This document shows positions 25,015 through 57,881 of a DNA stretch of 64,000 bases, piece by piece. The notes under the pieces were generated by a model. That model had not been told where the DNA came from. It did no database searches and worked only from the letters and a program-made list of their open reading frames with translations. How positions within the stretch are numbered: position 1 is the stretch's first letter; each line of letters starts with the position of its first letter. This stretch comes from Promethearchaeota archaeon (GTDB lineage: Archaea; Asgardarchaeota; Lokiarchaeia; Sigyniarchaeales; SOKP01): contig JABXKD010000005.1 of the NCBI GenBank assembly GCA_013375475.1, positions 1-64,000 on the forward strand. The letters are read 5' to 3'. The translations under genes were made by a program, and so were the position numbers.

Positions 25015-26365
25015 ATGCCAACCGATAAAAAACATTTAAACCTCGTGATTATAGGACATTTTGTTAGGCTAATTAAGCCTTCAGGTTCAAATTGATCACG
25101 GGAAATCAACAATGATGGGCGCAATGCTCATTAAAACTGGAGCAGTAACCGATAGAGAAGCAAGAGAACTTGAGAAGTTAGCAAAAGAGAACGATAGAGA
25201 ATCTTGGTCTTACGCATATGTGTTTGACCGGTTGAAAGAAGAACGAGCACGGGGTATTACTATTGACTTAGCTTTTCGAAAATTTGAAACTAAAACTAAA
25301 TATTTTACTATAATTGATGCACCTGGACACGCGGACTTCGTTAAGAATATGATCACTGGTGCTTCTCAAGCTGATGCTGCTATTTTAGTCGTTTCTGGAA
25401 AGAAAGGCGAAATGGAAGTTGGTGTCGCAGCTAATGGTCAAACTAGAGAACACGCTTATTTAGCGCAAACCTTAGGTGTTAAACAATTAGTAGTTGCCGT
25501 TAATAAAGCCGATGTCTACGATTACAAGGAAGAGCGTTATAACGAAGTAAAAGATGCAGTCTCTGACCTTCTAAAAAATATTGGTTTTCCAGTTAAAAAA
25601 ATTCCGTTTGTACCCGTTAGCGGTATTAAAGCGGAAAATCTTACAGAGAAATCAGATAAACTTCCATGGTACGATGGTCCTACTTTAATTGAAGCGATTG
25701 ATGCTTTTGAACTCCCACCAAAACCTACTGGCAAACCTCTACGAGTTCCAATCCAAGATGCATACAATATCAAAGGAACGGGGGTTGTTCCTGTTGGAAG
25801 AGTAGAAACTGGTGTATTAAAGAAAAATGATAAAATAGTTATCATGCCAACGGGCTTTAAAGGGGAAATAAGAAGCATCGAAATGCATCACGAAGAACAA
25901 AATCAAGCAGAACCCGGTGATAACATCGGATTTAGTATTAGAGGTATTACAATGGCAGATGTTGGCCGTGGCGATGTTATGGGCCACCCAACTGATGTAC
26001 CAACTGTAATTAATCGAAATGGGAACTGGACTGGACAAGTAATTGTTATCTGGCATCCAACAGCGATCGCTCAAGGGTACACCCCTGTAGTTCACGCTCA
26101 CACTGCTCAAGTAGCCGCTAAATTCATCGAATTAAGTAAAAAATTAGATCAAAAGACTGGTGCTGTAATAGAAGACAATCCAAAATTCCTCAAGAAAAAT
26201 GAATCAGCGATAATTAAGCTACAACCTATTAAAAAGCTTTGTCTTGAGAAGTATTCGGAATTTCCCGAATTGGGGCGATTTGCGGTGCGCGACATGGGTA
26301 GAACATCGTGTGTGGGGATTGTCAAGGATTTAGATCCTGGTGAACCTGTAGTTAAAAAAAAGTAG
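25015..26365 (+). CDS. tuf: Translation elongation factor EF-1alpha, two exons (25015-25059 + 25091-26365; 439 aa)
   Basis: Joining gives MPTDKKHLNLVIIGH|IDHGKST (intact P-loop), ERARGITID, DAPGH, NKAD, GRFAVRDMG. Confidence 0.95.
25060..25090 (+). other. Candidate 31-nt BHB-type intron in EF-1alpha mRNA
   Basis: Central helix GGAC(25054-57)/GUUC(25085-88); bulges AU^U and AA^A; exon helix CUCGUGAUU/GAUCACGGG; intron hairpin AGGCU-AAUUA-AGCCU; cuts restore the frame. Confidence 0.85.
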
Positions 26366-26601
26366 TATAATTGTTTTTTTTTATAAATTTTTATATAATT
26401 TCTTTTTAAATTTTCATTTGTATTTTAAGTGAGATTTAAATTTATCTGTGGTAAGTGTAAATTCTTTTATTTATTGACTTAAATTCTTAATTCTGGTTAC
26501 AATTTATGAATTTATATAAAATTCTCATCCATACTTTTTTAAGTTGACATTTATTAACTTTTTTAGCCCATTTCGAATTAAAGTAAAACCTAAATGATAT
26601 C

Positions 26602-27999
26602 ATGAGGAAAAAAAATTTAGATCCTATTATAATGATGTTTGTGGTCGTAATATCGTTGTTTGTGTTCACATTCATTATGCTATCGGTTGTTCCCGTAAAA
26701 AATGGTAGTGGTTCCACTAAGATTTCAAGATTTGGAATATTTGCATCCGAAGTTGAGATTAATAATCACCTTACCGTAGGTGATATCAATATAATACAAT
26801 AAAATAAAGAATCAGTAAATTTAATAGAAGCAGATTGGAATATTACCCATACTGGGCTATATCTCCCACAAATCTCTATTGAATTAACATATACTATTAA
26901 AGGCTCTCGTATGATTATCGATATTAACTCTATAATTGATATTAATGATATTATAAGCCTGAGTTTAATTGTTGCCTTCAATCCAAGTTATTCTAGTTAT
27001 AGTTTTATATCCAATTCTGAAAAGGGCAATGTTAACTTCAATGCTTTTGATATTAATATTAAAGATTTTTACCTTAGGACTAGTTCTGGAGAACTAAACA
27101 TTAAAATAAATAATAGCATCATTGAAAATAATTTCGAAGTGTCATCTAATACAGGAAATATAGAACTAATGTTAGACCATCTTTATTTTTTTAAAAACTT
27201 CTTTTGTCACTCTAACTCCGGTGTCCAATTGTTTGATCTTTGGAACCTTAAATTTAAATCGGTGGCGGATTTTAACGTATCCTCAAACATAGGATACATT
27301 AGATTACATTGGATGAATCATTTTAACAAATCTCAAGCCGTTAATATTAACGTCAATTCGAATAATGACATAAAAATAAAGTTTTGGTGTCCATTACAGA
27401 TTATGAGAAGCGATATATTGTTATCTACAGTTAATGGTACCACTAGACTCTCAACAACTATAAATACATATGAGGAAATTAGCGAAAACCATTATCAGAC
27501 GCCTAAAATAAATGACCCCTCTTTAGATTCATATAATATTACAGCAAGATCTACTAGCAGTGAAGTGTGGGTACATTATGTTAATTGTTTCAAGTGGTTA
27601 AGGGTTTGTGATTGGGCTGCGGATTTTCACCCATATAATGTAAGAGAATCTGGAAATTATTCAATGTTGAGACATGAGCATGATATTACTACTATAAATT
27701 TATTCAATACGAAATATATTTACTTAAATGAATCTAGGAACCTCACGATTAATTTTGATACTCTTCCGATGTCTAGCGAAAAACTTCTGTATATTGAATG
27801 GGATTTTAACTATATCCATGCAATGGGAATTGGTGTTGGCAGGCTAAATCTAAAAATCTCCCACAATAGAGTATCTGATACTTTAATGGTTTACATTGAA
27901 CTTGATTATATTATAGATCGGTTATTGCCTACGTTCAATGATTACAATGTTACTGTCTTCTATCATCCAAATTACGGTTTAAATCAATTCTTAATATAA
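26602..27999 (+). pseudogene. Membrane-anchored beta-rich (DUF4097/adhesin-like) protein with one in-frame TAA (26800-26802)
   Basis: ORFs 26602 and 26911 share a frame with an open interval; N-terminal TM; repeated TSSG/SNTG/SNSG turns. Confidence 0.6.
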
Positions 28000-55506: not shown

Positions 55507-55598
55507 TCTTCTTCTTGTTTATTCATAAAAGCATAAAATTTTTATGATTTGCTATATTTTAGCTATTATATTAAATAAAATTTAAGAGATGATATATC

Positions 55599-57881
55599 AT
55601 AGTAAAGGTAAAGAACCCTGAGGAGATCGCGCATCTCATAACTGCGGGTTCATATGAAAAAAAGCGGCTATTTAGTATTATAGCCCATATAGATCACGGT
55701 AAAACAACTGCAAGCGACTATCTGTTAAGAAGAGCAGGATTAATGCGTGAAGAAGATGCCGGACAGCTCCAAATGACCGATTCAGATTTAGAATAAGACT
55801 TACTTTTTCTACTGAAAGAAGAGGAGCAGGCAAGAGGAATTACTATTTTCACGAGTGTAGTTTTATTAGCTTTCAATGACCCTAGAAAACCAGATGACGA
55901 CGAACCATACATCCTTCAAATTAACGATACTCCTGGGCATATTTCTTTTACCGGAGAAGTATCGCGTGCGCTTAGAGGTAGCGATGGCGCTATAATTCTC
56001 GTTGATGCTTTAGAGGGTGTCATGACTCAAACGGAAACCAATATTCGATTATCTGTTGGCGAAGAGTTTTGTAAACCTGTTCTATTTATAAATAAAGTAG
56101 ATCGCTTAATTAGCGAGCTTAAGTTAAGCCCAGAAGACACTTTTGCGAAAATTGACAAAATATCGAGACAAGTTAATGAATTAATCAAAAAGATTAGACC
56201 TGAAGGATCAGGTTGGGGCGTCGATTTTGCTAAAAATAGCGTTGCCGTTGGCTCAGCGAAGCATGGGTGGGGTTTTACATATGAGATTTTATTGGAAAAA
56301 GGTTTAAAGCCACAAGATGTATTCGCAAAATATAAAGAAGGCGATATTCAATGGTTGAGAGATAATCTTCCACTTGACGAGCCCATGTTAAGGATGGTTG
56401 TGGATCATTTACCTAATCCTGTAGAAGCTTCAAAGTATAGAATCCCTCATATATGGGGGGGCGATTTAAACTCAGAACTCGGACAATCTCTTCAAAAATG
56501 CGATCCTAAAGGTCCTCTCTATGGCATGATTACAAAAATATTCTTAGATCCACGAAGAGGGTATCAAGCTACTCTAATAGGTCGCGTTTTTTCTGGTACA
56601 TTCGATCACACTGATTCAATTTATTTGATAGGCGGTAGGAGTACAAATCGAGTAAAACGATTAGGTGTTATGGAAATAACAGATCTTTTAGATATTCCCC
56701 GAGTTCCAGCAGGTAATTTATTTGCCTTATACGGGTTTATTTGCCCATCTGGAGAGACATTTATGTCTGCAAGTGACGTACCAAAAGATAAGGAGGAAGC
56801 ATACCAATTACCCACCTTTGAAAAAATCCAATACGCCTGTGAACCCGTTGTTTCAAGAAGTATAAAAGCCCAAGATCCACAGGAGATAGATAAATTGACT
56901 ACAGTAGTAAACAAGTGGCTTCAAGCAGATCCAACTGCGATGTATCGTTTAGATAAAGAGTCTGGAGAATTTATATTAAGCGGAATTGATCCGCTTCAAA
57001 TTGAGATACTTACAAAGCGAATTAATAATCAAGTGGAAATTAATATTGGAGAGCCGATTATAGTATATCGAGAAAAAATAACCAAGAGAAGCAGAGATTA
57101 TTACACAAAATCAGCTAACACACATAATCGCATTTTGTTATACATTGAACCACTAGACGAGAAAACGGAAAAACTAATTGAGTCTGGAAAAATAACAGAT
57201 CTGATGAATGAAAAGGATAAAGCTAAAATCTTGAGAGAGGAAGCTGATTGGGACGCGAAAGAAGCTAGACGAATTGTTGATGTGTATCAAGGAAGCTTAC
57301 TCGTAAACGGTACCTCGGGATTACAACGATTCGATAAAGTTAAATCGTATTTAACGGCCGCTTTTAGGGATTGGCTTGGAGAATGTATTCTTGCGAAAGA
57401 ACCAGCCGCAGGATTTAAAGTTGTTTTCACAGATATGACAATTCACGAAGATACAAGGCATACATCATATGGTCAAATCGCTGGAATGGCTTTTTCAGCA
57501 ATGTCACTAGCTATGTTGGACGCTGGACCTCATCTTTTTGAACCCATTCAGAAAATTGACGTGAAAACTCCAGAAGGGACTGAGGGACCGGTAAATGCTA
57601 TTATTAGCAAGCGACGTGGTAAAATTACAAACGTAATTCCCGAAGGAGAGTACGTAAGAGTTCAGGGTGAAATTCCCGCAGCTGAAACTATTGGTATAGC
57701 TGACGATATTCGAGGTTCTACTCAAGGAAGGGCTTTTTTTGGATACGAATTTTCGGGATTTGAAAAAGTACCAAATAGTTTAGAAGAAGATCTTATCCTC
57801 GAAATTCGCAAACGTAAAGGTATGCCAGACCACTTGCCAAATACTTCAAGTTGGGATCGGTTTATTTACAAAAAGACTTAG
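55599..57881 (+). CDS. fusA: Elongation factor EF-2 family GTPase, two exons (55599-55787 + 55818-57881; 750 aa), probable ATA start
   Basis: AHIDHGKTT; joined switch I MTDSD|EEEQARGITI; DTPGH; NKVD; EPIQ; RGSTQGRA. Confidence 0.9.
55788..55817 (+). other. Candidate 30-nt BHB-type intron in EF-2 mRNA (contains in-frame UAA)
   Basis: Central helix UCAG(55782-85)/CUGA(55812-15); bulges AU^U and AA^G; intron hairpin UAGAAUAAG-ACUUA-CUUUUUCUA. Confidence 0.85.

Follow-up and report, generated by a model that had tools for sequence, protein, structure and literature searches.

Predicted bulge-helix-bulge mini-introns in translational GTPase genes of a Promethearchaeota family

We analysed a window of 64,000 nucleotides (nt), namely positions 1 to 64,000 of the forward strand of contig JABXKD010000005.1 (assembly GCA_013375475.1, Promethearchaeota archaeon), in which two genes for translational GTPases, aEF1A and a member of the EF2 family, are each interrupted by a short insert. 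The window is part of a contig (here C244) with a GC content of 30-35%, from a genome bin of 3.92 Mb in 288 contigs that is 100% complete with 6.4% contamination. This source genome is referred to as G000 and related genomes by further G-numbers, G014 being its closest relative; the genus table comprises 42 genomes, and the EF1A gene is present in 38 of them. For every insert the junctions were set first by protein alignment, and the bulge-helix-bulge motif was tested afterwards.

The first exon of the aEF1A gene (25015-25059, + strand) runs for 15 codons from the ATG at 25015, encodes MPTDKKHLNLVIIGH and closes with ..LNLVIIGH, ending on the GH of the P-loop GHIDHGKST. It is followed by a predicted, frame-shifting bulge-helix-bulge intron of 31 nt (25060-25090, +) and by a second exon of 424 codons and a stop (25091-26365, +), which begins with IDHGKST. 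The gene matches NF008969 (615 bits) and TIGR00483 (582 bits), both above cut-off, and is the sole EF1A gene of the genome. The region 25040-25110 folds with a dG of -21.8 kcal/mol (z -3.96), a value equalled by one of 200 shuffles. Within this fold, exon bases 25054-25057 pair with insert bases 25085-25088 to form a central helix of 4 base pairs (bp; GGAC with GTTC), accompanied by two bulges of 3 nt each, ATT at 25058-25060 and AAA at 25089-25091. An inner hairpin (25066-25080) carries the loop AATTA, and an outer helix of 10 bp (25042-25051 with 25093-25102) is set off by 1-2 unpaired bases. Cuts past the second base of each bulge would give exactly the junction that the protein requires, restoring GHIDHGKST at the length of the relatives' uninterrupted genes. 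The corresponding empty site is common: 24 of the 29 same-genus loci fetched, that of G014 included, read MP..LNLVIIGHIDHGKST unbroken, and the G014 protein, which has no insert, is 95% identical to that of G000. Among the 38 same-genus genomes having the gene, the insert at this H/I bond (a slash marks the interrupted bond throughout) is confined to G000.

The EF2-family gene is interrupted in a similar manner. Its first exon (55599-55787, +; 63 codons, the first codon being ATA) is separated by a predicted relaxed bulge-helix-bulge intron of 30 nt (55788-55817, +) from a second exon of 687 codons and a stop (55818-57881, +), such that the insert stands between ..MTDSD and EEEQARGITI. The central helix joins TCAG at 55782-55785 with CTGA at 55812-55815, the bulges are ATT (55786-55788) and AAG (55816-55818), and an inner helix of 5 bp is closed by the hairpin loop ACTTA. 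The predicted junctions restore MTDSD-EEEQARGITI, again at the same length as in relatives' uninterrupted genes, and the exact empty site (hereafter DSD) is found in 26 of 29 relatives' loci. A preliminary description of this sequence had reported that the two inserts share a helix-bulge architecture and would end reading early if retained. Both statements hold, with a 4-bp helix and 3-nt bulges at the restoring junctions in each case; the retained EF1A insert leads to a stop 11 codons further on and a product of 26 residues, and the EF2-like insert contains an in-frame TAA. The second gene, listed there as that of an elongation factor, is one of two EF2-family paralogues in G000, scoring 567 bits against TIGR00490 compared with 646 for the copy on C99 (cut-off 738).

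The ATA at 55599-55601 occupies the position at which all 28 relatives' loci showing the N-terminus have an ATG (MVKVK..), and a nearby ATG at 55589 is out of frame. It could represent a non-canonical start, a base error or incipient decay. The gene is otherwise intact, its 687 codons being 95% identical to G034. A 682-nt contig of the same bin (C109; locus L011, 1-682) carries an EF2-like fragment that is 87% identical and exactly lacks the insert, which indicates that the bin holds a second, related population, in keeping with its contamination. In the Protein Atlas, the EF2-like protein lies nearest to EF2-family clusters dominated by eukaryotes, among which is one with the name Ribosome assembly protein 1; the taxa of these clusters are known from few members.

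Inserts of this kind are found at nine sites in all among G000 and its relatives, with lengths of 29-33 nt; eight of the nine lie in translational GTPases, five of these in P-loops. In G000 itself, the aIF2-gamma gene carries a 30-nt in-frame insert at the G/K bond of GHVDHGKTT, at codon ~134 (C33 about 22268-22297, - strand; locus L004/L151), and a RadA/Rad51-like gene carries a 31-nt insert at GGN/IVAHG, codon 231 (C255:54146-54176, +; locus L317 1347-1377), which folds as the canonical motif (dG -25, z -3.0). The aIF2-gamma site is occupied in nine of 29 relatives' loci (all by 29 nt) and, likewise by 29 nt, in the separately fetched G003, which with G000 makes 11 genomes. It is empty by sequence in 19 of the 29 loci and in G001, and by open-frame length in six more, while its state is not readable at contig ends in G024 (fetched locus) and G015. 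EF1A is interrupted at G/K, four codons past the window site, in five of 29 loci (31 nt in G033, 32 nt in G036, and 33 nt in G017, G018 and G029) and also in other genera of the same family (G230 and G281, 32 nt each), for a total of seven genomes. Further EF1A inserts lie at D/H in G209, from another genus of the family (29 nt), and near the C-terminus at RDMG/R, codon ~420, in G006 (31 nt). A Promethearchaeota metagenome-assembled genome has a 30-nt insert at a DAPGHAD/FVK site (locus L341). The EF2-like DSD insert is shared with G023, G015 and G062, four genomes counting G000, and G015 has a second EF2-like insert of 31 nt at a D/H bond in the P-loop. Three different bonds are occupied within five P-loop codons of EF1A, and the G/K bond is common to EF1A and aIF2-gamma. 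A position near the 5' end, previously listed among the shared features, is true of both window inserts but is a by-product of their place at the P-loop, other inserts lying at codons ~134, 231 and ~420.

Other genes and genomes are free of such inserts. aIF5B (47330-49138, +; P-loop GHIDHGKT, in ILGHIDHGKTS), the uninterrupted comparison gene of the window, is intact as had been reported, and no interruption of it was found in any of 38 relatives; the second EF2 is likewise uninterrupted in all 35 genomes with a match. Many genomes, for example G008, G025 and G032, lack inserts altogether across the five GTPases that were examined. Three side observations concern these genes. In the genus of G000, aIF2-gamma has an N-terminal extension of more than 100 residues with helix-hairpin-helix-like repeats (open frames of 517-540 amino acids, aa). 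The RadA-like gene is apparently present in three copies in G008, two of them with a short open frame. In G064, the second EF2 (L227) has an in-frame TAG in place of the K of LIRELKLTD in a gene that is otherwise full-length, which may be an error, a pseudogene or a case of recoding.

The helix-bulge geometry is largely uniform across the inserts. All four pairs of the central helix are formed in 13 of the 14 inserts examined, an inner helix of at least 3 bp is directly adjacent in 11, and the bulges are 3 nt long and A-rich in all 14. Both helices were regained in only 6-40 of 10000 shuffles per insert (0.06-0.4%). The minimum free energy fold is the canonical helix-bulge-helix-bulge-helix for the window EF1A insert, the G000 RadA-like insert, the aIF2-gamma insert of G003 (z -5.2) and the EF1A insert of G036. 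When the 11 aIF2-gamma sequences were aligned, 93.5% of cells were paired, compared with 25-52% when partners were slid, and the central helix was paired throughout (100%). One pair of the aIF2-gamma hairpin displays compensatory change, being UA in eight sequences, CG in two and AU in one. The alignment of the four DSD sequences is 94.6% paired and too uniform for covariation. The A-N-U-U-A pentaloop that had been put forward as a common feature has to be given up: the G023 insert, which occupies the DSD site as well, does not preserve it. The inserts are untranslated, each having stops or shifting the frame, and the aIF2-gamma insert is 29 or 30 nt long depending on the genome, which shows that it is not read as codons.

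These observations bear on a different account, in which the inserts stay in the RNA and are bypassed by ribosomes through hopping or frameshifting, or in which the genes are pseudogenes or assembly artefacts. Ribosomes do bypass a short untranslated gap in gene 60 of phage T4, the EF2-like gene lacks an ATG start, and the bin is fragmented and partly contaminated. Take-off and landing codons for a bypass are, however, unmatched (CAT before and CAA..ATT after the EF1A insert; GAT before and AAA..GAA after the EF2-like insert), and a uniform endonuclease geometry at 29 to 33 nt would be superfluous. EF1A and aIF2-gamma are sole copies whose exon 2 is throughout 95-96% identical to G014; that the interrupted genes are essential, single-copy and intact apart from the inserts counts in favour of introns. 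The same inserts, with compensatory changes, are present in independent assemblies (11 genomes for aIF2-gamma, seven for EF1A G/K and four for EF2-like DSD). We consider this account very improbable. The inserts are also far too short, at 29-33 nt, for self-splicing group I or II introns and matched no curated RNA family; in Rfam, no family reached the gathering score anywhere in the window, and no tRNA gene was found in the window.

The enzymes that an intron of the bulge-helix-bulge type would need had been named as a point to check, and both are encoded in G000. There are two endA genes (PF01974 matches on C215 and C133, with an open reading frame (ORF) of ~200 aa each) and one rtcB gene (PF01139 match on C211; locus L009 1498-2970, - strand, 489 aa). 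The RtcB protein fits the NCBI intein-containing model over the extein parts only, indicating an RtcB without an intein. The best solved relatives of the EndA product from C215 are the 186-aa chain B of 3p1z and 3ajv, and also 2cv8 and 2zyz_B, all of which we take to be catalytic subunits of crenarchaeal enzymes. An (alpha-beta)2 EndA with an L1 loop is described for Asgard archaea in PMC5829648. By analogy with that account, the G000 EndA would be of the two-subunit type, with broad specificity and able to cut relaxed motifs, and the same account fits the weak outer helices of the inserts studied here. ARAGORN detected 29 tRNA genes in G000, 14 of them intron-bearing and several with introns of 19-30 nt; the bin being 100% complete, many of its tRNA genes are probably too interrupted for detection. 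Heavily interrupted tRNA genes with repeated intron gains in Asgard archaea are the subject of a preprint (10.64898/2026.10.13.758758), and the ARAGORN intron count for G000 is in line with that work.

Because the junctions given by the relatives' uninterrupted genes coincide with bulge-helix-bulge cut sites, we read the inserts as EndA-type introns. In the proposed pathway, the four exon bases just 5' of the junction would pair in the transcript with four insert bases close to its 3' end, leaving a 3-nt bulge on each strand; the two-subunit EndA would cut past the second base of each bulge; and RtcB would join the exons, restoring the aEF1A P-loop and, in the EF2 paralogue, the stretch that precedes RGITI. 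Taken together, these results support, with good confidence, a model in which both window inserts are bulge-helix-bulge introns of the tRNA type that lie in mRNA, are spliced out by EndA and RtcB and are subject to sporadic gain and loss. They belong to a sparse mini-intron population of this Promethearchaeota family, confined almost entirely to the best-conserved nucleotide-binding motifs of translational GTPases, with one RadA paralogue in addition.

That this population is sparse is indicated by three comparative censuses, none of which made use of the motif. In the first, 117 open frames of at least 80 aa from C244 were set against 137 loci of relatives, some of them overlapping (1.02 Mb and 1204 gene instances), and stop-containing inserts in well-aligned coding sequence were found only at EF1A G/K. 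In the second, 2151 ORFs of G008 (1.09 Mb) were compared with the whole of G000 (1333 instances, 287,178 aligned residues), which returned only the aIF2-gamma and RadA-like inserts. In the third, 7717 ORFs of G000 were compared with 2.56 Mb from relatives (3620 instances, 753,520 residues), which returned only the EF1A and EF2-like inserts. An extra check for short first exons found none among 1052 instances, and no mini-insert was seen in 146 kb aligned between G000 and G014. Searches of G000 for copies of the inserts elsewhere gave chance matches of 11-16 nt only, each insert being single-copy. A scan for further genes with such motifs had been suggested in the preliminary description, and further inserts did come to light in aIF2-gamma, the RadA-like gene and the relatives. 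A structure-plus-ORF scan of C244 produced 38 hits compared with 29 in a reversed-partner control, and this lack of specificity led to its replacement by the comparative censuses. Among the flags raised by the censuses, those rejected were N-terminal length differences with start codons, low-similarity alignments, a rearranged small GTPase (G009), runs of N (G001 and G003) and contig ends (G063, G006, G023 and G024).

Several observations weigh against the interpretation of the inserts as EndA-spliced introns. The sequencing runs that were found contained at most 0.32 of sampled words, and four of them (X1, X2, X5 and X6) were aligned to positions 15001-35000. In these four runs EF1A exon 2 was met only by relatives' contigs of 95-340 nt, with none over 25060-25090 and no joint from 25059 to 25091. 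One X5 contig begins at 25091 with five unaligned letters, but its 11 differences in 317 positions mark it as coming from a relative. As a whole, the four runs speak neither for nor against splicing. The EF2-like insert has an outer helix of 1 bp only, the relaxed form, and folds no better than shuffles (z -0.66 and +0.22); with ATA in place of its start codon, the window copy of this gene could be decaying. The EF2-like D/H insert of G015 forms three of the four central pairs, and a directly adjacent inner helix is absent from three inserts. The same RadA-like interruption is suggested in G028, G016, G020 and two extra copies in G008 from open-frame lengths only. Coverage by the censuses amounts to ~28% of one comparison genome plus loci chosen in the neighbourhood of GTPase genes, and a very short first exon is more easily missed. 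Finally, the strong bias to translational GTPases is left unexplained by a purely neutral or parasitic reading.

The history of the inserts was traced on a reference tree of 37 genomes built from aIF5B and the second EF2, two genes without inserts. The minimum number of changes on this tree is four for aIF2-gamma, three for EF1A G/K, four for DSD and three for the RadA-like insert. The four DSD carriers represent four separate clades with insert-free sisters, and their insert is near-identical. In the model given above, close relatives often acquire and lose the inserts, or have them relocated, and lateral spread and repeated precise loss would fit this pattern alike. One possibility is a mobile mini-intron family spreading between GTPase paralogues and lineages, its targeting provided by short exon pairing (for example ATGG in ..CATGGNA/A..) and by recombination in conserved flanks, as with inteins and homing introns. 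The G/K site is filled in two paralogues, with insert ends and the exon helix ATGG in common; the C-terminal EF1A insert of G006 also lies in a G/(K,R)-T context; every site is within a highly conserved motif; and the distribution of the DSD insert is as expected for spread. However, similarity between the insert interiors of different genes is weak (best p 0.001-0.009, not significant after 36 comparisons), none has a second copy in G000, 30 nt is too small for any encoded function, and repeated precise loss of an older intron accounts for part of the pattern equally well. We know of no insertion mechanism for such mini-introns. Mobility is a tentative proposal. The same caution applies to its broader form, a doubtful scenario in which ~30-nt protein-spliced introns colonised the mRNAs of this Asgard family, homing to nucleotide-binding-motif codons of translational GTPases and moving between paralogues and lineages by a short exon-pairing guide, thereby tying synthesis of aEF1A, aIF2-gamma and the EF2 paralogue to the tRNA-splicing enzymes.

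The preliminary description had gone further, proposing that elongation-factor synthesis may depend on EndA and RtcB and that the interrupted genes may form a splicing-controlled regulon. The first part is retained. Given the EndA-substrate geometry, the exact restoration of the proteins, the presence of endA and rtcB and the interruption of aIF2-gamma as well, factor synthesis should depend on the tRNA-splicing enzymes, and for aEF1A, aIF2-gamma and the EF2 paralogue this dependence should be real if the introns are spliced at all. The second part holds that EndA/RtcB activity, shared with the heavily interrupted tRNA genes, sets the levels of aEF1A, of the EF2 paralogue and, as extended here, of aIF2-gamma, and couples translation to tRNA processing. 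Such a regulon would be consistent with three translation GTPase genes interrupted in one genome, with eight of nine insert sites of the family in translational GTPases, with ordinary genes almost never bearing an insert and with 14 of 29 tRNA genes being interrupted. The distribution of the inserts argues otherwise, no insert being conserved across the genus: the EF1A H/I insert is present in one of 38 genomes and absent from G014, the EF2-like insert occurs in four scattered lineages and requires at least four changes on the reference tree, and many genomes lack an insert in any of the five GTPases. Moreover, insert positions and sequences differ between genomes, the loop motif varies, aIF5B and the second EF2 are never interrupted, and a recombinase gene, the RadA-like one, is. 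A regulon is thus improbable, and splicing is most likely constitutive housekeeping and not a control point.

The closest known system is the cbf5 pre-mRNA intron of Crenarchaeota (Watanabe 2002, cited in PMC5829648; Yokobori 2009, PMC2738675). According to PMC2738675, cbf5 stood alone in 2009 among archaeal protein-coding genes in having confirmed EndA-type splicing, and its intron in Staphylothermus measures 36 bp. The cbf5 intron and the present inserts are alike in being short bulge-helix-bulge introns in a protein gene, in their link to a hetero-oligomeric EndA, in lineage-specific gain and loss and in causing gene mis-prediction. The present inserts differ in lineage (Asgard) and in genes (aEF1A, an EF2 paralogue, aIF2-gamma and a RadA-like gene), and, unlike the single site of cbf5, occupy many sites, several of them in one genome, and strongly favour the nucleotide-binding motifs of a single protein superfamily. 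For cbf5, splicing is demonstrated, whereas the present introns are predicted from sequence.

Bulge-helix-bulge introns of archaeal tRNA and rRNA, which include non-canonical positions and transposition in tRNA genes, share with these inserts the 4-bp helix, the two 3-nt bulges and the same enzymes, and the tRNA introns of G000 are of similar size. Retention here would truncate a protein rather than disable a structural RNA, and, the host being an mRNA, codons have to supply the exon part of the motif. In HAC1/XBP1 splicing a short intron (26 nt in XBP1) is excised from mRNA by a protein, with RtcB ligation in animals and a change of frame, but the endonuclease is the stress sensor IRE1, two stem-loops are recognised and splicing acts as a switch. 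The present inserts resemble that system in frame change and predicted protein-catalysed excision and differ in their predicted EndA motif, and their patchy distribution argues against a conserved switch of the HAC1/XBP1 type. Inteins and homing introns are likewise patchy among close relatives and reside where essential genes are best conserved, in motifs that include P-loops; unlike them, the ~30-nt inserts encode no homing enzyme, and enzymes of the host would take them out of the RNA. A literature search that left subscription journals and supplements outside found no earlier account of introns of this kind in protein-coding genes of Asgard archaea. What is new is the lineage, the genes, the number of sites, the presence of several inserts in one genome and their concentration in motifs with which translational GTPases bind nucleotides.

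Here an Asgard archaeon appears to need mRNA splicing to express its only aEF1A gene and its only aIF2-gamma gene. For annotation, this means that metagenome bins would list such core markers as truncated or frameshifted, and as EF1A, EF2 and aIF2-gamma are standard phylogenomic markers, mis-called genes would affect trees. For the origin of mRNA introns, the inserts offer a testable system, predicted to be spliced by the host, in which introns are gained and lost and favour certain targets, and this among the archaea most closely related to eukaryotes; if they were mobile, they would be the first known case, in that archaeal lineage, of mRNA introns that move and are spliced by the host. Where translation is co-transcriptional, they also raise the question of how unspliced messages escape translation.

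Other genes of the window include bacterial-type uvrB (39452-41458, 994 bits) and uvrA (44333-47200, 1383 bits), which lie between the two interrupted GTPase genes. The 955-aa ORF corresponds to UvrA and may have been counted among the GTPases in the preliminary description. Just 3' of the EF2-like gene is a Ras/Rab-like small GTPase gene (57911-58489, -), the equivalent place in G009 being taken by a tandem or rearranged pair.

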